The position numbers were made by a program, and so were the translations under genes. A DNA stretch of 64,000 nucleotides from Curvularia clavata. Lineage: Eukaryota. The number at the start of each line of letters is the position of its first letter. Position 1 is the stretch's first letter. Positions 12,947 through 52,742 of this stretch are shown here, piece after piece. Under the pieces are notes generated by a model, which saw only the letters and a list, made by a program, of their open reading frames with translations, had not been told where the DNA came from and did no database searches. The stretch spans positions 1,984,001 to 2,048,000 of the forward strand of contig CP089280.1 in NCBI GenBank assembly GCA_023920165.1, given 5' to 3'.

Positions 12947-13504
12947 ATGAAGGCCTTCACCCTCCTCGTCCTCATCGCCAGCGCTTTGGCCGCCCCAGCA
13001 AACAAAGGAGGCTGCGGAAACGCCGCTGGAGCCGCTGCTGGAGGAGCAGCCGCCTGCACCAAAACCAGAGCCGACTTGGAAAAGGGCATTCAGGACAACC
13101 TGAACATCCAAGCCCAAGAACTCGCCGGGTACGTTTTCTTCCCCCACTACCACCCCTTCATCCTCACTAACATCGTCTCCAGTGTCCAAACCCTCCAAAA
13201 ACAAATCGGCACCGCCGACTTCAAAACCACTCAAGCCAAAGTCCTCAAGATCCAACAACAAGGCATCGACATCCGCGTCAACAACCAGAAGCTTGCCAAG
13301 CAGATTAACAGCACTGCCTCTGCGGGTCTCGACATCGTGCAGGGCGCACAGCTCAAGGAGATGTCGCAGGTTCAGGGGCTGACCGGCACGGCGGCAACCG
13401 AGAAGGCGGATAAGGAGACACTGGCGACATTGGTACAGGAAGTCCAGGATGGCACGAAGCAGAACCAGAAGAATTTGGCGGATGCGAAGAGTTCAAAGTG
13501 CTAG
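12947..13504 (+). CDS. Small secreted protein (about 167 aa after splicing), unknown function, candidate effector or cell-surface protein
   Basis: Signal peptide MKAFTLLVLIASALAAP. Helical Gln/Asn-rich body with 3 Cys. Intron 13129-13182 (gtacgt...ctaac...cag). Confidence 0.85.
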   Translation: MKAFTLLVLIASALAAPANKGGCGNAAGAAAGGAAACTKTRADLEKGIQDNLNIQAQELAGYVFFPHYHPFILTNIVSSVQTLQKQIGTADFKTTQAKVLKIQQQGIDIRVNNQKLAKQINSTASAGLDIVQGAQLKEMSQVQGLTGTAATEKADKETLATLVQEVQDGTKQNQKNLADAKSSKC

Positions 13505-39910: not shown

Positions 39911-42342
39911 AAGTGTGTGGATTTACTTTGGGGCGGGGCATACAAGGCGTCTCTCTGATTAGTTACGATCTCAATGGGAAGGCTTTTCATCTTCTTCGGC
40001 TCACAGTACCCTTTGATATGGTACGAGGAGAAGCATGCACTTCAAAACAGCATTGCGACATGCTACCACGGCATGACCCAGGACATGAAAGGACAGAAGC
40101 CGTAGGAATGCAATGAAAAACGAGCCAAAAGCACCAGGACGATTTTTTTTGTTCGAGTGACGTAGGAGAGTGTGATGTCGATCTGGACTGAAGACCTTGC
40201 TTGCAGAATACAAGTGCATAGGCCGAACATGGGGGTTGGTGGTCACTTTGTCAACCCGTCGTTTTCCTTGGCAGGTCGGGTAGAAGACTGTATGGAGCGG
40301 GTATACCTCGTGGACTACCGTGATGCCCTGCGCCAAGCATCGAATGAGTACTGGCTAAATTGCTTTCTTTCACATGCTCGAGATCAAAGGCCAGCCATGT
40401 TGGGTGCTTTGTGATTACACTGCATTGTTGTTGCTGAGCGTAATCAGCCATAGGTTTGTCAACGCAGCCATCGGGATTGGGCCAAATATATTCGGCGAAT
40501 AGGACATTGGCTAGCACGACAATGACATAAGTAAAGACGCACATGGCCCATTCCGACGAGACGGAAAGACAAGTCGTTATCAGGAAGATCATGTGTTTTG
40601 TTCTTGGAGCCTGCTCGCTCTGCATAAGCCTGGCGAGGGGTCGGCTGAAGTGGCTGGCATGTTTGGGTGGGTGTCCAGACACCACCGTCGTACACAGAGT
40701 TCAGCTTGGCCCAACCTCAGCGCCCAGCGCGCGGTGGCCGAGTCGATGAGATGAGATCAGATGAGATGTGACGGTCAGTGTGTAGGCGCATGGATGCTGA
40801 TAAGGCAGTTTGCGCAATCTGTAGTCCTATTATACATGTACGTACGAATCGCCGTTAGCCATGGCATAGGGGGGCTACACCGGAGCCGCAATGGCGCTGG
40901 GCAGACAGGCTTGGCGGCGTCGCACGTCCGGCAGCCGGAGCTTCCAGAAGGAAAGGGTGAATTAACCTTGTGGGCTGGCAAGGCAAGCTTTTGGCTTGCG
41001 ACATGCGACGCTGGGCTGCTTCGGCCTTGTTTGTGGGGTCTGCCACGTTTTTATGGAGTGTAGAAGGTCTGACGACGACGCGCAAGAGACGGGGGAAATT
41101 CAAGGGGCGCACGACGACATTGATTTGGGTTTGATGTACAAGACTGGGCGTGCAACCAGTGAGCCCGACTGCAACACAAACAGGACAAAGTCCATGGGTG
41201 TTGCTGTTTCTTTGCGCCGAGAACAGACGCGTGTTTCTTGTTTTCTCGGGTTTCCCTCGCTACCGGGGCGCGCGCTGAGGTTCCGCGGCCTAGTCCGGCC
41301 CACTCAGTTCCTTTCTTATCCGCACACCTCAACCCAGCATCACACCGCCATGGAGCTGCCCTCTGTCTGTGCCTGCCCGGCCACCTTGCACAAATGTGCG
41401 CACACTCTCTCCAGCCCTGCCTGGCCGCTGCTCTCGAGCAACCGCCTAGTTTGCCATGATCCGTCCACGCATGGCCGCCAGCCGACGTGATTGGCGCGAA
41501 GCCGCCCTTTATCGATGCACCTGCGACACCGTCAGGTAGGGCACAAATGCGGTCTCATACATGCAACCACCGCGATCAGCATATTCGTGATTTCAACAAG
41601 GCAAAGAACCGGACAACGTGTCCCGCTGGCCGCAGCCCATTGAGGCAGTGCTCGCGAGGGCCATGACGGCGCCTCCCTTGGTTTTTCCTTACTCGTCTCC
41701 AATTGCGATTGGGGGCGGCGTACCGACTACTCAGGACAGCAGCTTGCTTAGGTAGATGCTCATATGATTCTGACTGTTAGCTCCCCCGGCCCATGACCCG
41801 CACTGCTACCCACGGTAGGTCGAAGCGCAACCAATTTCCTCCCGTCAGCCTGGGAAAGATTTTCAGGCCAGCACTATTTTAGTTCCCGTGCTTCAAATAT
41901 TTGGTCACCCCAGAACCTTTGTTTCGAGAATCCTCCTTTCACGCCCAGGTCAGTTCAAACAAGCTCGAAGGCTTTGCCTCGCTCCTTATAGCGACACAGT
42001 CGTGCTTCTGCACGCAGTGATTGGCAGTCTTCGGCTCGTTACACAAACTGAAAAAATCGCCAGCGCCACAACTGGTTTATAGCATTACACTTTCACCTGA
42101 CCTCCTCCTTTCACCTCCAATTCAGCTACTCGAGTCCCTCCCCTTGGCCATTGTCAATCAACAATAATCTCCTCGACGAACAAGACAACAAAGGAAAAAC
42201 CTTGCTCAAAAGGCCCCCTTCTCTTCGAGCATTTGCCGCCCCCGGATTCCAGGACCCACAACTACTGCCGACTGTCCCCGGAGGACCACACCACAGCAGT
42301 GAGCGGGACCATTACTTCTTCCATTTCACCACGACAACTAGC

Positions 42343-43245
42343 ATGGCGCCCAACCTCTTAGTTGCTACCCAAAAGGCCTTTGCGCCACACAAGTGGTTCA
42401 AGTCCAACAAGGCCGACCTATCCAGAGTTGTCGAGGAATGGACTAGTCCGGTACCTGGCCAATACGAGAGCATTCCCGGTCGAGGCTGGTTCTTGATCGC
42501 GACCCTCAAGGACGAATCAAAGCCAGAGCACAGTGAAAAGCCAACTGTCAGGGGATCTGATGGGAGGAAATACATCCTGTTGGAGAGGCCTATCCCCCTC
42601 AAGTATTCTCATGCACTCGGCCGCTACTTTCTAGAGCCAGAATTCGAAAAGCGCAAAAAGACGGTCATGATCAAGGACGACAAAGGCAAAGAAGTCCGAG
42701 CCGGTTTCTTCCGTGTTGACGATGTCGCCTGGGTCAAGTGTTGGGACGAGCACGACACTTTTATTCCAGGCAACGCCAATGGTGCTGCCGGCTACCAACG
42801 CTGGGTTCTGGACGCGCAAACCCACCAGTTCAGGCATATGCTCAAACGCGATGACCCAAATTACATCCGGTCTCGAAGAAACTCGCCTGCTCGCGATACC
42901 GACAACCGCAGCCAAGAGTCCGTCAGCACAGAGTTCCGCAGTAGTCGTCCTGGCAGCATCAAGAACGGCTTCAGCGTCGGTGGGAGCACCCGGACCAGTA
43001 GCATTCGCTACCAGCCCTCGACACCTACCTCCAACGCGCCAAGCCAACGGCCCTCTAGACAAAGCAGTCCCAAGCGCAGCGATAGCATTCCCCTCGAAGA
43101 GGCCAAAGCCGCACTCAGACGCTTAGCCCGCGAGCATGAAGAAGCCGCCGCCGCCCTGGCCCGTTCCCGCATGAAGCGCACTGACTCCAAAGACCGAGTC
43201 GAGCAAATCGAACGTGGTCGCGTTTCGGAGCGTGTCGGAAACTGA
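42343..43245 (+). CDS. Hypothetical protein (about 300 aa) with an aromatic N-terminal domain and a Ser/Arg-rich tail
   Basis: Long intronless ORF with coding-like composition. I recognise no domain. Confidence 0.7.
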   Translation: MAPNLLVATQKAFAPHKWFKSNKADLSRVVEEWTSPVPGQYESIPGRGWFLIATLKDESKPEHSEKPTVRGSDGRKYILLERPIPLKYSHALGRYFLEPEFEKRKKTVMIKDDKGKEVRAGFFRVDDVAWVKCWDEHDTFIPGNANGAAGYQRWVLDAQTHQFRHMLKRDDPNYIRSRRNSPARDTDNRSQESVSTEFRSSRPGSIKNGFSVGGSTRTSSIRYQPSTPTSNAPSQRPSRQSSPKRSDSIPLEEAKAALRRLAREHEEAAAALARSRMKRTDSKDRVEQIERGRVSERVGN

Positions 43246-44443
43246 ACAAAAAGTATTTTTGTATTCACTGTTGATTGGGGCCGTTTTCGGTACCCTTGCG
43301 GATATATATATGTCTATATATATATATGGGGCGTTACAGGTATGGGCAACAGGGGCGGATAAGAGAAGTCGGTGTGTACCTGTCTACACGTGACGTTGCT
43401 CTCTCTCTATATCTGCGCTCAAATCACGACGTCATGGCTTTTTTTCCCTTGCCTTTCTTTCTTGGTTCTAGAGGTATAGGTTTCTTGTTTGCTTGTAATA
43501 ACTACTCTTTGCATGCCTTGGTTTGGGCGGTTTTCACGATATCACATGAAGAGTTTCTTTGGTAGCGATACAGATGGGGTTTAGATTACACGGTACATTT
43601 AGCTCTCAAGAGCGTGGTTTTTTTTTCTTGCTAGACGTTTCTGCTTCTTGCGATCTTTCTGGCGTACAAGTTTTTTTTTCGACCCGGGCTGAACGCTAGG
43701 GGAGAAAGTCAAAAGTAGAGTTTTATACCCCTTCTTCTCTCCCTACACTTTGCGGTTCTTTTTTGCCTAGGTAGATGGAAGTAATGGGAAAGAAAAGTAA
43801 TGTTATCTTTGTGTATTTTTCGGACCCCCTGGATTCTTAGGGTCAGATAGAGGGATATCACATTGTCGGCTTGTAAACCCTTGAGTCCTTGATGATGTTT
43901 TCTTGATGCTAGCCAACTATGATGTTAAATAGGCGTGTTTCGCAGCCACCCTAGCCTCTCAGAATTGTATAGTGACGGGTTTTGCTTGGACATGTAGATG
44001 ATCAAAGTCACGTGTGTAGTCAGGTCACCTCGTTGCTCGTCTCTATCTGATGAATTGCATGGACACAACTAAGATAGTAAAAACATTTACTCTTCTATAC
44101 CCTAGCAACCGGACTAGAGTCCTATCTCCTGAAAGAAAAAGTGCTGTGAAGCGAAGCAACTTTTAAATTACAGGCTATTCAAAAGCACACAGACTTCACT
44201 CCACTATCAAAGCGCACACAGAGAGTATATAACATTCGAGAATGTATTTTTTCTATAACCCAAGAAAACCTATTAGGAAATCCGATCTAAAAGAATGAAA
44301 GTCTATTTTGCCCACACAAGCATTACCGAGAGAGCGTCGTCATGATGTCGTCTATCCTAACCCCTCTCCCACTCACCCACTTATGAAACGAGTGATAAAG
44401 TGGGTGAAATGAGCGAGGGGGCAACTCCCCAAGAAAAGATCGT

Positions 44444-47050
44444 TTACTCATCAGAGTCAACATCGTCCTCAGACTTCTCCTCTTGCTCCTTCTTCGCCTT
44501 CTCCTCCTGCTCTTTCTTCTCTTCCTCTTCCATTCCGTCACACATGCACTTGAACTTTCTGCATGATTTGTTAGTGTGTATTCTATGTAGCTTGTGTACA
44601 AATTCTTGTGTGAGGACTTACTCTTCAGTGATCTTCTTGCAGTAACCGCCAGTCCTCTGCGCGAGCTTGCAGACTGTCTGGCAGTTGCTAGGACCACTGT
44701 TCTTGGTGCATGGCTCAACTAGGCTTTACTGCGTGCGTCAGTTTAGAAGTGGGAAAGAGAAGCGGCTAAGTTGGAACACCTACACCTCGTTGAACTGACG
44801 CTTTTCGTTACCAGAGTCAAGTTCGTCGTCGTCATCTTCCTTGTTCTCGGCGTTCTGGGGACTGGTGGAGGGTTTCTTCTCCTTGGGGACGGCGTCCTGG
44901 TTTTGGGCAGCATCGGGGCTCAGGTTGTTGGGGTCGAGGGCGTCCTTGAGATCAGGGACTCCTTGGCGCTTGGCCATGATGCCGTACCAGTTCTCGCCGT
45001 GCTTCTCATTCTTGCCATCCTTGGACTCAGACTCGTGGTTTTGGCGAGACATGATACCGTACCAATCCTCGCGGTGGCCCTCCTTGGACTCCTTAGACTC
45101 CTTGTTCTCGCGCTTCAGGACGCCGTACCAGTCCTCGCCGTGCTTCTCGTTCTTACCATCCTTGGACTCAGACTCATGGTTTTGGCGAGACATGATGCCG
45201 TACCAGTTCTCACGGTGGCCCTCAGATTTCTTGGAGTCTTGGCCCTCTTCAGACTCATGGCTCTGGCGCTTGCGGTAGTTGAAATCGTCGTCCTCGTGGT
45301 GGCTCTCCTTAGACTCCTTTGTCTCTTTGGTCTTAGACTCCTTTTTATCGCTGTGAGGCTTGCTATCCTTGGAGTCCTTGGATTCCTTAGATTCCTTGTT
45401 ACCACGCCTCAGGATGCCGTACCAGTTCTCGCGGTGACCGTCCTTGGATTCCTTGTTCTCACCGTGAGACGCACCGCTCTTGGAGTCCTGGCCCTCTTCA
45501 GACTCATGGCTCTGGCGCTTGCGGTAGTTGAAATCGTCGTCCTCGTGGTGGCTCTCCTTAGACTCCTTTGTCTCTTTAGTCTTAGACTCCTTTTTGTCGC
45601 CGTGAGACTTGCTATCCTTGGAGTCCTTGGATTCCTTGGATTCCTTGCTACTCCGCCTCAGGACGCCGTACCAGTTCTCGCCGTGAGACTTGTCATCCTT
45701 GCCCTCCTTGGACTCGTGGTTCTGGCGAGACATGATACCATACCAATCCTCGCGGTGGCCCTCCTTGGACTCCTTGTTCTCGCGCTTCAGGACGCCGTAC
45801 CAGTCCTCGCCGTGCTTCTCGTCTTTGCCACCCTTGGACTCAGACTCGTGGCTCTGGCGCTTGTCCATGATACCATACCAATCCTCGCGGTGGCCCTCCT
45901 TGGACTCCTTGTTCTCGCGCTTCAGGACGCCGTACCAGTCCTCGCCGTGCTTCTCGTCTTTGCCACCCTTGGACTCAGACTCGTGGCTCTGGCGCTTGTC
46001 CATGATACCGTACCAGTTCTCGCGGTGGCCCTCCTTGCTGTCCTTGGAGTCCTTGTTCTCCCGCCTCAGGACGCCATACCAGTTCTCACGGTGACCGTCC
46101 TTGGACTCCTTGCCCTCAGACTCATGGTTCTGGCGCTTACCGAAAAAGCTGCCAAAGTCACCCTCCTCCGAATCACCTCCCTCCGAGTTTCCCTCCTGGC
46201 GCTTGCCAAAGAAGTTCTCTTCATCATCTCCCTCGGAGCCATTTTCCTGGCGCCTGTCGAAGAATTTGCCGTAGCCGTGGCCTTCGGACTTGTCCTGGTT
46301 GGAGTCTCCACTCTGAGGCTGTCCCTGGGGCTGCTCCTGGTGCTGCTCCTCATGAGGCTGCTCCTGGGGAGAGTGATCCTCAGAGGGGTGACCCTCAGAA
46401 GAATCATCTCCAGAAGGGGGGCCCTGGGAAGGTTCTTGTCCCTGCTCGTGAGATTCGCCCTCAGAAGGATGGCCCTCAGAGGACTGTTCCTCGGAAGGCT
46501 GCTCCTCGGTAGGACGGTCACCAGAAGGTGGGCCACCAGAAGGGCGACCTCCAGAAGGAGGGCCTCCAGAAGAGTGACCCTTGTGTCCGTACTCATCAAA
46601 GACGTCGAGATCAACGTCAAATTCCTTGCCAGGCCGGCGTCGCGAAAGCTTGGTCCGGTCAGTCGAGAACTGAAGCGCCGGAACAGCAGAGACTTGAGGC
46701 AGTTTAACAGCAGCAGATGATGATGATGATGGCGAAGGCGAAGGAAATGGCACCGGTGATGCTACAGCATCTTGCCTGCGAATAGGCAACTTGAGTGAAT
46801 CCAAGAGGCCTGCCTTGGGAGTGGCAGATGGCTTCACAGAAGAGGAAGAGGAATAGTGCGGCTCGGAACGGTAGCGTGCATCAGTGGGATGGTGCGGTTC
46901 AGCAGAGTACTGTGGCTCAGCAGAGTATTGCGGTTCGGCAGAGTACTGCGGCTCAGGGGTGTAGGCCGCCTTGGATGGCTCTGGACGGGTTGGCGCCGCA
47001 TTGCTCACGAGAGCAAAGGTGGACACAACGACGGCTGCGGTAAAACGCAT
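44444..47050 (-). CDS. Secreted Kex2-processed repeat protein (KEP) precursor with a C-terminal CS-alpha-beta defensin-like domain
   Basis: Signal peptide MRFTAAVVVSTFALVSNA. Twelve E[ND]WYG[VI][LM] units closed by KR, RR or R. Downstream exons 44723-44622 and 44558-44444 (intron gtaagt...ctaac...cag at 44559-44621) give C-x8-C-x3-C-x9-C-x9-C-x-C plus an acidic tail. The first intron's exact boundaries are uncertain. Confidence 0.85.
45731..46000. repeat. Apparently perfect 135-bp tandem duplication (45-aa two-peptide module) inside the KEP gene
   Basis: 45731-45865 reads identical to 45866-46000. Confidence 0.85.
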
Positions 47051-49175
47051 CGTGATTAAGTTGTTGATTAGTCGGTTGTATAATTATAGGGAAGGATGAG
47101 TGTAGTATTAAGGGATAGTTGGTAAAGGAATGTTTGTAAAAGAAAGGCGATGGTGAGATGGTGAGTGATAGCAGGTGAGGATGGCGGCTTCATATAGTCT
47201 TTCTTTCGACAGCCTCGTTGTTTTGTTTTACAAGATGCTTGAGCCGTGCTTGTGCTTTGCGTGCGTACGAAGTCCCTTCACACCGGAATTTGTTTCTGCA
47301 TGAACGCCGATCGTTGGATGCGGTGCTAAACGGGGTCCGTCAAGTGCGCATTCGTACACCCTGCGAACATTGACTAGCGCTTGGTCCTGTGTTTGAGGGA
47401 TTTTGTTAACATCAATGTTGCTGGGAGATGTACGAGAAAGGGGTATTGTTGCTGGTTGGATTCTTCCAACTTGGCTGTAGTTCCCTTTGCAATTTCCTTC
47501 GCATAACTGTAGAGTCTCAACAATAATTACAACGAGCCAACGTCGAACTCTGAAGGCTAGTGTAGAAAGGATACGGAAGATCAACGTGAAGATCGAGATC
47601 CAGGGTCAATCTGCCCACCTCGCTAATGCATTGAAGGGGGCTATGATACACACGAATGCGTGTACTCACAGTGTCTGGTGAAAAGAAACCTGGGGAACCG
47701 GTAGGTCATGGCTTTTGTATGACCAACACCAACGAGTAAAGCGAGGCGGAAGTAGTAAGAGGGTGGGGAAATGAAGAAAAGAAAGAAGCCTAAACGTTTC
47801 TCCTTTGCAAGACAAATGGACGGACGAAAAAGAATGTTGTCGAATTTCCGTTTCTCTTCGCCATATTGGATTTTACCGCAACGTTGCGTGTATATTGTAC
47901 ACAACCAGGTGTTCCAGATCATTTCACCAAGTCCCAGTCTGACGTCAATTAACAAACAATAAAAGCCAATAACCTAACGCATGCATTGGGACTTGCGGCA
48001 TTGCACACTTCCCCATCCAAGGATGATTTCTGGCCCCGTGAAAGTACGAGAGTTACTGCAGCTATGCATGGAACATGTCTCTGCATGCAGCCCAAGAAGG
48101 AATTCATCCGGCGTTATGACGAACCGAGGGTGCGGCTCTCAGAATAGATGGACGTCGGTGGACGCATCCGCGAAAAGCAATTGAAAGGAGGTGCCGGTCA
48201 GTGGAACAAAAAGAACCATCACTGGGCGTTGCAGAAGAGGCGTGGACTATTTTGTTTAGCGCTGTGCAAGAAGGGTAAAGTGAGGTGCCTCATAGAAGGA
48301 GCTTAATTCCTAGTAGTTCTGAAATAGGTTTACCTTGCCTGAAGCTTGTGCAATACATGCTTCTAGACTTGTGCTCGGCTTCAACTACACGCAGGCTTGT
48401 TGTAACTCTGTCCGACACAACTGACCGCCGCGAAGAGCTCGGACTGTCGAGTTGTGCGTGCGAGATGGCTGTTTGGAAAAGAAATAGCGGAATATGAAAT
48501 CTTACACTGCATGAGGTTAGCTTCTGGCGTATTAGGACTCCGCTAGGCAAAGTGATAGTTGGAGACATTATCCTACGTTGGGGTAGCAGTAAACTACACA
48601 ATCACGGGCGAAGACACACAGCCAGTGGGGAAGGTCGCGACCGCGCGGATGAAGCCGTTGGCGTCCACATCATTATTGTGGTCTCGATTTGTTTTTTTCT
48701 GTGCTTGGAGCACGGCCGCACAACTGCTACAGCTCCGCTACTCGCCAGAAAATCGTCATAGGCTGCTGATTCGTCTATTTGTACTCGCCGGAGCAGGGTT
48801 CTGGACGTCCGCGGAAACGTTTAGAAGGCGCCTAGAAGGTCTGTTGAATGTGGATGTAGTGACCATTGGTGGTGATGCCAAAAACAAAGGCCGGTACGCG
48901 CAAAAGCTCACTGGCGGATGGATGAAGGCTCAACGTAACCAGCTACTTGACCGACTTCGTCAGTGCAGATGAGTTCGTGTGTGGTGTCAAGAAGATCCTA
49001 TTCATTGCTGACGTCTGCTTGAATTAGTTTTTGTCAGCCGGAGTTCTATGGGCTCACCAAACTTCGTTCTAAAAGAGCAGTCTCAACTTGTACGTTACAA
49101 AGTGATACCTATTGATACAATGAAGCCGAAAAAAGAAACCCAACCCCTCATTTGCTGACCAGTACTGAAAGCAGT

Positions 49176-51968
49176 CTATGCAATGTAGGCGTATAGCCCG
49201 TCATCCTCCCTCTCTAAGAACTCCTTCTCAATCAGCCTATCGATATTCCTCTTGATACCGCTGACTTCCAATGTACCCCTATTCCTTGTAGCCTTGATGG
49301 TCTCGCTGACCAGTTCGGCATGGCTAATCCTCTTTCTCGCCTTCAGAATGCGCACAATGGCGGCCTGTGTTTCGTAGTTTCGGTCCGCAGCAACACGTTC
49401 GTGTGTTTCCTTGTTCTCAGCCGCAGTTTCTTTGAGTTGAACGGTGTTGACCTTGATGCGGTATTTAGGGTCTGTGAATGAAGAGTTGATAGTGAATGTG
49501 TCGGTTTCATTGATGTCACGCCCTTTGGGATGTTTCGTCAGAGGCCGTACTTTGGCACAGGCAAGAGATTGTAGTGTGCGGTTGAGCTCAGCAGGCGCTG
49601 CACTTTGTTAGCAGATATATTGGAATAAGAATTTTGCACAACTCACGTAGACCAGTGGCCTGCTTGAGATATTCGTAATCGATATGCTCATCGTCTTTCC
49701 GGCCATTGAACAACAAAAGCACTATGGCCTGGAATGATGAGACTACCAGTTCTTTGAGCCCTTTAGGAAACCTAGCCTTGACTTGGCAATGTGCGAGTGC
49801 ATGTTTGAACTCCAGTTTGCGACCAGTGTGTTTGACCTTGTAATGCGCTTCAAACTTGTTGATGGCAGATTGGATCTCAGGAGGTAGGATGACGGGAACG
49901 GTGGGATAAGTTGGCCAGGCCGATGCAGAAAGAACGCTGACATTCAGATCAAGGTCTAGCTTTTCGTTGCGTTCCTCACTGATGTTCTTGTATGAGCTCA
50001 TCTCCTCTCGTGACAATTCAATGTCTCGGAACATTTGTTCAAGATTGGCGGTGAAACCAGCACCGCATTCTATAAACTGTCAGTATGCATGTCGCATAAA
50101 ACTCCCCGGCTGAAGAGGACTCACCAATCTTAAGCCTGGACAACATGCTCCTCTCGGCATCTGCACTTGCACTTCTGCCCATCAACAGTCGCCGTGCCAA
50201 GTCCTTCTTATAAAAGGCCTCGAACACAGCCTTGCCGTGTAAGAAGCGGAACAGATCCAGAACTTGGTCGAGTTGGCTATTGACTTCGGTGTCTTCGTCA
50301 AACACATCATCTTCTTTGTCGTCCTCAGCCTCTACTTCAACAGGCTTCTCTGCCTTTCGGCTGAGCTGGGTTGGTATTGCTTTGGCACCTCCTCTTAACA
50401 ACATGTCGACGTACTTGGCAATCATCTCACCGGTCTTGGAGTTGTCTGTACCCCAGCTTGCACTTGTCTTCTTTGTCTTGTTCATGAATTTGTCAAAAGC
50501 CTCGCGCAGTCCATGACCTAGCTCTTCGTCTCGATGAAACGAGGTTTTCCATATGGTGTCTAGTTGACGCTTCAATGACAACAATTTTACCACCATGTTG
50601 TCTTGTTCTTTTTCATCGAACACGATTGCCGTGCCCTCGTCTTCTATCCATTTTGTGAAGCCGGGTCGTAGGTGCGAGCCCATCTTTCGACGTTCGAGAA
50701 GTGTATAAAGCAACTCAAGGTCTTCAACGGCGTTCGTCTCTAGGAGATCAGCCAGGTCGTCTTCGTTTGTCAATCGCGACTCTTTCTTCGTTATCAGATG
50801 GTCTTCCAGCAGCGTGAGGAGTTCCCGTTTGGTTGTGTTAGGAAGGCTGAACATCTCTACTCGCTTCATTTCACGGTCCATGAGAGCCCTTGAATTGCGG
50901 ACGTACTCCGGCAGCGACTTTTCTGCGCTCTCTGTCTCGGCCCATTTTACTATATATTCCTGACTGATTTCCATCAAGCGCGGCTCAAAGTGACGTGTGT
51001 AGACCTGCATGTCGTGGAACATATTGACTGTCTTGGAAAACGTTTCGCTGTCAAGGTCGCCGCCTGTCCGATCAGTGGCCACGAGATCGCAGGCACCATC
51101 AACAATGCGAGTGTTCAGTTTGCCGTGTTCGAAGATAACGGAACGAAAGAGGCTTATGCAGATTTCGCAGAGGGATTCGTGTCTTGGAAGAAGGTAGGCA
51201 CGGTCGAGGTAGCAGAAGATCCAGTCCAAGTATTTCTGCCAGTGGGTTAGTTTGTTGGTATATGTTGTCGTCGGTATAGCTTACCATTTGACTGTTCCAT
51301 GTAGCCCAAGCCTGCAGCGTCGTCCGCAACACATCAACGCTGGTTCTGCTCAGGCTGTCCTTCACCTTTGCCTTTAAAGTGCCTCCTACATAGTCCTTGC
51401 ACTTGGCTATCAGGCGCTCTTTGATATCCTTTGCCATATTCTGCCGGCAGACATTCTCTACGCCCCGGTATAATTCCTCCAAACTAAAATCAATGTCGCC
51501 TTGCTCGAAGATGGTGTCCAAGGCCTTTTCGACCTTCTGCCATGTCTGATCTAGAAAGGTGCGGGGGTCCACCTTTCTGATGGGCTTGAAGTTCTTTACT
51601 ACCAGTCGCTTGGGACCACTGTTGGCATGCATGTTGGGTGCTGCCTTGCGCATTCCGTTCCGTTGACCGTTCATCTTAGCAGCGTTGTTATCAGGGCTCG
51701 CGGTGAGATCGACTACGTCGGTATTGCTCGGCATGACCGACTTCTTGCTTGAAAAAGTATACATGTCGGCCGTGTTCATGGTGGTTATTGAAGGCGGGGA
51801 AGTGGCAATCTCTGTGGTTTCTATGGGAGAGCTGTCTCGTCGTGTGCGTTTGCTCGTGGGCGATAACGGAGCTGCAGAAGCAAGATTTGGCTTGGCTTGC
51901 GTGTTGAAAAGATCCTTGATCGTCTTGCCTGAATGCTTCCGTTTCAGCGCACTTGGATTGGCGGACAT
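49176..51968 (-). CDS. CUL4: Cullin-4
   Basis: SLEELYRGVENVCR, IAKYVDMLLRGG, FEAFYKKDLARRLLMGRSASADAE, C-terminal neddylation domain TQAAIVRILKARK. Introns 51236-51284, 50070-50124, 49598-49646. Confidence 0.95.
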
Positions 51969-52742
51969 TGGGCGAGTGTGGGGAGCGCAAAGGTTGCGGA
52001 GTTGTAAGTGTTAGAGCCGCAGCTGCGTCCGAGGCGGTTCCGTTAGTGACGTATCGATAACAACTGCTAGAGCACCTCGACTGCTTACGCGACCTCAGGC
52101 TTGCGACTGTCTGTCAACATGGGGGATGCTACATGTATCTGGTGATGCTGCGGCTGTTTTTATCATGGACACTATATCTCGTGGCGTAAAGCTGTCACCG
52201 ATGATTGGGGGCTCAGCTTCGGTCTACACCCAAACCATGTCACTGCGTAACTGTCCATGTCAACTGTCAGCAGTGAAGCCACACGCACCCACTACAAAAG
52301 GCGCCGACAGACCAATCCAATGCCGGCATGTATACGGAGAAGGCTACAAAGTCGTACATATTATTCGCAGAGGAGTATGCCTTGCTGGCTCCCTCTATGC
52401 CATTCCGATGCTAGCAGTCCGCGGCTCTGAATCTAAACCCAACGCCGAAAAAAGACCGTACTTTGCACAGAAGCAAGGAGACCTTTTGGGGACTTTGAAG
52501 CTATCTACATAGTATGTCCATGACAGTGTTGGCACAAAGGCGATTTCACGGCGCACAAGTGAAGAGGATGCGCGGCAGCGTCATGTGCACGTGCGGCCCA
52601 AACCTGGGACTAAAAGTGCTCGGACATACAACGCGTCTCCCATTGCTGTCCCCGCCTCCACCCCATCGACCGCAATTGTCGCGCCACTTTCTTCCACCTC
52701 AACGCCACTAGTCGTTATATCACGTACACGCGCGCGGCCACC

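Follow-up and report, generated by a model that had tools for sequence, protein, structure and literature searches.

The fungal precursors known as KEX2-processed repeat proteins (KEPs) lose a signal peptide, are cut by Kex2 after dibasic sites and are trimmed by Kex1, with pyroglutamate forming at peptides that start with Gln and with occasional cleavage after a single Arg (PMC9769878). Few KEP peptides have been assigned a function, and no phenotype was seen in the single knockouts described in PMC10589705, PMC9769878 and PMC7329392. Kex2-flanked peptides also occur fused to other domains, namely a glycoside hydrolase (PMC9769878) and a chitin-binding profile (PMC7329392). Candida Ece1, the candidalysin precursor, and Ustilago Rep1 are likewise single Kex2-cut polyproteins that yield many peptides; Ece1 carries one active cargo and its companion peptides are needed for the secretion of that cargo (PMC12153327). 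The CS-alpha-beta defensin framework, C1..C2-x3-C3..C4..C5-x1-C6, is also a known kind (PMC5234102). The known fungal defensins come from small precursors, VdAMP3 being about 4.9 kDa (PMC8670511). We describe here a gene whose predicted product joins a KEP-type repeat array to a defensin-like end.

The window (the whole 64-kb stretch of DNA that was analysed) contains a minus-strand frame, 47050-44780, in which 12 WYG units are arrayed from 46132 to 44966. All 12 units carry the core H-[RG]-E-[ND]-W-Y-G-[VI]-[LM], nine of them closing with KR or RR and three with SR-Q, in agreement with the original prediction. The residues H(-4), E(-2), W, Y and G are identical in the 12 units, and the remaining core positions exist in two states: R (7) or G (5) at -3, N or D (6 each) at -1, V (5) or I (7) at +3, and L or M (6 each) at +4. 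The predicted combination of a variable N-terminal part with a fixed aromatic end is thus real, and the core Y and G vary only silently. Before KR or RR the cores read WYGVL (n = 5), WYGIL (n = 1), WYGIMD (n = 2) or WYGIMA (n = 1); the three SR-Q units read WYGIMS-R-Q.

Two further units of 43 residues each, also foreseen in the original prediction, end in HHEDDDFNY-RKR. The first is a K/E/S-rich unit at 45515..45652 (minus strand), and the second, at 45266..45403 (minus strand), lies inside a 249-base duplication. Across the 12 WYG and two FNY units the first residue is Q in eight, E in four, S in one and G in one, so most units do begin with Q or E (12 of 14). After trimming, the units of the array (44966..46132, minus strand) would be 18-35 residues long, and each piece between dibasic cuts has a net charge of about -2 to -4. 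WYGVL and WYGIM types mostly alternate along the array. The array has grown by tandem duplication with periods of 75, 135 and 249, and recent duplications account for part of the likeness between WYG units.

The units do not follow directly on the signal peptide, as had been supposed: about 290 residues intervene and the array starts at residue 307. The intervening stretch consists of an N-terminal pro-region, residues 19-267 (46250..46996, minus strand), with 6-residue repeats and S/P-rich and E/Q/S/G/P-rich segments, and of a 15-residue and a 20-residue acidic unit (46133..46249, minus strand), both ending in FF-G before KR. The pro-region has RR sites at residues 92, 138 and 267 and its final segment ends in FF-D, giving three FF-D or FF-G segments before RR or KR upstream of the WYG array. 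Downstream of the array, an acidic spacer of 54 residues with a net charge of about -10 (44798..44965, minus strand) ends at the last KR; it occupies the place of a defensin pro-peptide and may act as one. The pro-region also contains an 18-base repeat in 3.6 copies (window 46893-46956, minus strand) that encodes a 6-residue Tyr/Pro/Glu unit. This repeat is 36 bases longer in run X10 of the public sequencing runs described below, three of which carry an insertion of 12 bases at 46352.

The clustering of the motif is specific to this gene. A DNA pattern for WYG[VIM][LM] matched the 32.4-Mb genome 23 times; 12 matches fall inside 1.1 kb of this gene and the other 11 are scattered singletons. The reversed pattern, used as control, gave 14 matches genome-wide, and we conclude from these distributions that the array is not a product of chance. 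The six frames of the window contain no WYG motif elsewhere, and a protein search found no paralogue in the same genome. Tachykinin-type peptides end in FxGLM-amide or FxGxR-amide; mimicry of this type was considered and rejected, the WYG units having W instead of F and no Gly for amidation. A stop-free plus-strand frame of 657 residues, 44747-46720, rich in L, V and G, was also rejected as a gene because the introns sit on the minus strand, and it appears to be the antisense shadow of the biased codons of the repeat.

The original prediction took the protein to end at 44780. This apparent stop falls in an intron, since two introns are spliced out in contigs of public runs, and the resulting protein has 827 residues. 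Exon 1 encodes residues 1-755 and two bases of codon 756 (44784..47050, minus strand; open reading frame plus the splice donor from the joint 44723-44784). It is followed by intron 1 (44724-44783, 60 bases), exon 2 (44622..44723), intron 2 (44559-44621, 63 bases) and the coding part of exon 3 (44444..44558), all on the minus strand, and both introns have GT..AG ends and a branch site. The spliced frame stays open up to a stop 115 bases into exon 3 (44446-44444), and the 3' untranslated region (44277..44443, minus strand) extends at least to 44277, the end of contig 13 of run X15. This 608-base contig begins at the last WYG unit, crosses both splice junctions and ends at 44277, following the window without a mismatch.

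The splicing evidence comes from contigs of four out of 20 public runs that contain the stretch, aligned to window 41800-52300. None of the runs with the stretch is recorded as RNA; introns of the neighbouring cullin gene are removed in three of the four aligned runs. At the 3' end of the WYG gene, CT..AC joints are found at 44558-44622 (runs X5 and X15) and at 44723-44784 (run X15), so that among the joints listed the exact intron 1 joint occurs in one of four runs and the intron 2 joint in two of four, with variants of the intron 1 joint in X5 and X15. Neither 3'-end joint is present among those listed for runs X1 and X10. On visual inspection, intron lengths are unchanged at the variant joints in X15, where one junction codon differs conservatively and another silently. 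An intron-retaining form that lacks the defensin-like domain may also exist.

The runs that contain the stretch bear five organism labels and come from eight studies, and their contigs supply all the comparative evidence available here. Pieces from the four aligned runs range from more than 99 % to less than 90 % alike, and joints within the array skip or repeat units. These differences may reflect strains or related species with varying numbers of units; a collapsed repeat assembly would look alike.

The defensin-like domain revealed by splicing went unnoticed in the first reading and is the best clue to function. All six cysteines of the protein lie after the last KR, at residues 761, 770, 774, 784, 794 and 796, with a spacing of 8-3-9-9-1 and GGYC at the fourth cysteine. 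Exon 2 holds cysteines 1-4 as C-x8-C-x3-C-x9-C, and exon 3 supplies the C-x-C of cysteines 5 and 6 (44548-44540) followed by a 31-residue E/K/D-rich acidic tail. This arrangement follows the CS-alpha-beta framework. A gamma-core is defined as GxC-x3-9-C and is present here as GYC-x9-C, spanning intron 2. The piece after the last KR has 76 residues, starts with Gln and comprises the six-cysteine framework and the acidic tail, with no KR or RR site between the two. The domain is weakly cationic, with a charge of about +1.7 over 47 residues without the tail and about -8 with it.

Searches were also made with exon 2 alone, which holds four of the six cysteines. Its Pfam matches are to Gamma-thionin (E 3.5e-4, 21.2 bits, below the cut-off of 25.1) and Defensin_2 (E 0.021, 15.2 bits, below the cut-off of 20.4), and no further Pfam family matched. 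Exon 2 is the best of five Gamma-thionin matches in the genome (E 0.09 genome-wide), and by eye the remaining four show no such cysteine pattern. In the six frames of the window, this domain is the sole match to the pattern C..CxxxC..GxC. A structure model of exon 2, a half domain with the last strand outside it, has the order strand-helix-strand and places CxxxC in the helix (pLDDT 80, pTM 0.41). Fold searches with this 33-residue half-domain model were uninformative: they gave nothing at E 0.001, with a best Z of 2.8 and no defensin among the rows listed, and a PDB sequence search with exon 2 gave a best E of 1.4. An Atlas comparison with exon 2 returned CS-alpha-beta families only, every score being below 0.8, which makes it a lead only; the repeat region returned a single unrelated row at 0.77.

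By the sequence criteria examined, the WYG precursor is a KEP. KEPs are recognised by at least three motifs flanked by KR or RR, and here nine of the 12 WYG units and both FNY units end dibasically. The first 13 positions reach a hydropathy of 2.6 in 9-residue windows, with negative values after that, suggesting a signal peptide at about residues 1-18 (46997..47050, minus strand). No transmembrane segment is predicted by hydropathy, the highest 19-residue mean past residue 20 being 0.68. The precursor has 17 dibasic sites. A kexin-type gene is also present in the genome, where an 850-residue frame that carries subtilase motifs gives one P_proprotein match (E 4e-29). These features support the KEP reading of the original prediction. 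Shared with described KEPs are the predicted signal peptide, repeats flanked by KR or RR, several repeat types and Gln starts (PMC6339444, PMC7329392, PMC9769878), together with the lack of a DUF3328 neighbour that is reported for 78 % of catalogued KEPs. The terminal CS-alpha-beta domain sets the precursor apart from them.

We compared this combination with KEP catalogues and the literature. The conserved motifs that PMC6339444 names in the text examined do not include the WYG core. Its main text does not mention the word defensin either, and its online sequence table may list the WYG protein. No defensin or thionin profile name appears among the 7878 KEPs in three supplementary files of PMC7329392, whose pipeline excluded proteins with a segment of more than 100 residues; the WYG precursor has one of 128 residues. 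The motif itself gave no match in the supplements of these two catalogues, where the rows and files examined give accessions or a web link in place of sequences. KEPs and the CS-alpha-beta framework are each known, and the literature searched yielded no example of the two joined within a single spliced gene; nor did the full-text literature yield a paper on a fungal WYG peptide with Kex2, with subscription journals mostly outside the coverage in both cases.

Homologues were sought by several routes. Word-index protein searches with residues 255-756 (8000 candidates), a 200-residue repeat stretch compared with longer proteins (260 candidates) and the final 180 residues of exon 1 (101 candidates) found none, phmmer over 1.84 billion representatives gave 0 matches, and no exact match to the unspliced protein exists in the protein collection. 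Among metagenome contigs, the protein-based search gave 20 pattern matches, none of them confirmed, and the exon 2 pattern gave 0. The low complexity of the queries and the exclusion of near relatives make all these blanks weak evidence.

With plectasin, eurocin, micasin, VdAMP3 and copsin, the fungal CS-alpha-beta defensins and defensin-like peptides, the terminal domain shares six cysteines, CxxxC and CxC, Gly before cysteine 4, a position behind a dibasic site for release, and a Gln start. It differs from them in ending an 827-residue polyprotein instead of a small precursor, in its acidic tail and in its weak charge. Class II plant defensins, whose C-terminal prodomains are acidic, also have a prodomain after the defensin, and the best Pfam match here is to the plant Gamma-thionin family; they have eight cysteines as against six here and no repeat array. 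In these plant defensins the prodomain protects the producer (PMC11840293). Ece1 and Rep1 share the many-peptide layout; here the cargo has a disulfide-type defensin framework instead of an amphipathic helix, the companions are near-identical repeats, and a sequence relation to Ece1 or Rep1 is not expected.

Taken together, these results make it very probable, as far as sequence can tell, that the gene encodes a KEP-type polyprotein with a signal-like N-terminus, a repeat region and a defensin-like end. Processing by Kex2 and Kex1 is likely by analogy with described KEPs. The precursor would probably be cut into about seventeen short peptides and one small defensin-like protein. Single-Arg cleavage in KEPs is only occasional, so the three SR-Q sites could be cleaved or stay intact. 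From Kex2/Kex1 biology, cutting would take place in the Golgi, basic residues would be trimmed, and N-terminal Gln would cyclise to pyroglutamate. Each defensin-like peptide would be exported together with 9-12 WYG, two FNY and three FF-ended pieces.

We hypothesize that these products work as an antimicrobial package, the acidic peptides with aromatic tips escorting or presenting the defensin-like peptide; this is a tentative reading to which we give slightly less than even chances. The linear acidic peptides with their aromatic hydrophobic tip could escort the defensin-like peptide through secretion, and the acidic spacer and tail could keep the weakly cationic domain inert until cleavage. 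Alternatively, the linear peptides may form an extracellular film or complex that holds the defensin-like peptide at the hyphal surface. The Ece1 companion peptides and the Rep1 peptides would be the analogues for escort and film. That the defensin-like peptide targets competing microbes is the least certain step. The analogies behind the package are the Ece1 companions (PMC12153327), VdAMP3 (PMC8670511) and the prodomains of class II plant defensins (PMC11840293). Counted against it are the weak cationic charge of the domain, the lack of a dibasic site ahead of the tail and the view in PMC5234102 that antimicrobial activity may have been lost in many fungal defensin-like peptides. Moreover, 12 conserved aromatic cores seem more specific than mere escort would need.

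It is conceivable, if speculative, that the gene encodes a one-gene cocktail in which a CS-alpha-beta defensin is released with about ten times as many conserved WYG peptides, which would potentiate or deliver it or signal in parallel. Strains would then differ in this ratio through their number of repeats, and the defensin might be switched on or off through intron 1 splicing. A KEP-defensin fusion points to a specific assay, namely microbial competition in the presence or absence of the companion peptides. The range of places in which to look for fungal defensins would grow as well: screens for small secreted cysteine-rich proteins would miss this domain because it lies at the end of an 827-residue low-complexity precursor and is split by two introns.

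One alternative explanation for the conserved cores is that the WYG peptides act as linear signals, whether autocrine, developmental or between organisms, and correspond to the variable 'address' and conserved 'message' of the original prediction, with the aromatic end binding a receptor and the defensin-like domain as a passenger or itself a regulator. The sequence pattern is such that they may act in this way: five core positions are fixed in all 12 units while the spacers vary, most units start with Gln like detected KEP peptides (PMC9769878), and some fungal defensin-like peptides regulate growth rather than kill (PMC5234102). We nevertheless consider this explanation unlikely, as no receptor gene is found among the neighbouring genes, the peptides are long and highly charged compared with known fungal ligands, and the fusion to a defensin framework is left unexplained.

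It is also possible, with a distinctly low probability, that the peptides are structural amphiphiles that assemble on the wall like the Ustilago Rep1 repellents, the cysteine domain anchoring or capping the layer. Each unit pairs a charged N-terminal part with a hydrophobic end of five residues, FF closes three segments, and Rep1 peptides form amyloid-like fibrils (PMC9769878). However, the hydrophobic stretch is short, and the peptides carry a net negative charge and are likely to be highly soluble.

The WYG gene sits among housekeeping genes, a context that bears on the idea of modified peptides. It lies between an orphan gene of 300 residues and a cullin gene, with genes for Scc3, Mvp1, PalH, Dcn1, DNA polymerase alpha subunit B, a Sec14-like protein, Mgm1 and UreD as neighbours, and with ubiquitin hydrolase, AAA, transporter and dehydrogenase genes beyond the window; 38 frames were scanned for families, 12 of them without one. 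None of the 17 UstYa/DUF3328 matches in the genome lies within 1.6 Mb, the nearest on the contig being about 1.67 Mb away, and none of the 22 tyrosinase matches lies within 0.5 Mb, the nearest being about 0.54 Mb away; the UstYa search was made exon by exon and its counts are lower bounds. This housekeeping context and the lack of any DUF3328 or tyrosinase match within 500 kb make the proposed role as a substrate for Trp/Tyr cross-linking unlikely.

A dikaritin-type RiPP precursor, with Y-x-I cores cross-linked by DUF3328 enzymes encoded elsewhere, is improbable for the same gene. The precursors of the dikaritins ustiloxin and phomopsin share the KEP layout, and in seven of the 12 cores Y-G-I follows E-[DN]-W, close to the EDYXI core of those precursors (PMC6339444); the genome does have UstYa matches. 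Yet W stands between E-[DN] and Y in all seven, and the neighbours are housekeeping genes. The distances to UstYa and tyrosinase contrast with an average DUF3328-KEP distance of 3.09 genes (PMC7329392), and the best UstYa pair has a repeat precursor of its own within 1 kb. Long charged leaders and the defensin tail are further differences from dikaritins.

A diverged alpha-type mating pheromone precursor is very improbable. In its favour, a Ste2 receptor gene is present (G000:C4:501495-502398), no other precursor in the genome gave a repeated match to either Dothideomycete consensus (one listing covering 100 of 879 matches), and YG plus a hydrophobic residue is common to the WYG core and PYG[LM]P[IV]G (PMC6339444); PMC10569646 and PMC8661429 offered no applicable synteny for locating such a gene. 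Against it, WYG[VI][LM], without cysteine, fits neither PYG[LM]P[IV]G nor the two-cysteine consensus (PMC6339444), none of 21 pieces has A or P at position 2 and thus no XA or XP follows the cut sites, the units have 18-35 residues as against 9-14 in mature pheromones (PMC10569646), and precursors described lack a defensin tail. By the features examined, the WYG precursor is neither a dikaritin nor an alpha-pheromone precursor.

Several further observations were made at neighbouring and distant loci. The orphan neighbour (window 42343-43245, plus strand) has no Pfam family, belongs to a cluster of three unnamed members and is spanned by long contigs of the X1 and X5 runs. The cullin gene (window 48985-52118, minus strand) has three introns confirmed by the joints 49597-49647, 50069-50125 and 51235-51285. 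At window 12947-13504 (plus strand) lies a small protein with a signal-like start, probably one intron and no convincing Pfam match. Elsewhere in the genome, a second repeat precursor (L051:7662-8432, plus strand; G000:C2, about 297.7-298.4 kb) has a signal-like start and about four 41-residue, Tyr-containing repeats between KR sites. It lies within 1 kb of the divergent UstYa/DUF3328 pair that is the best in the genome, making this locus a candidate dikaritin-type cluster. Ten UstYa loci were surveyed, three with 10 kb around them and seven with short flanks, and a precursor was seen at one.
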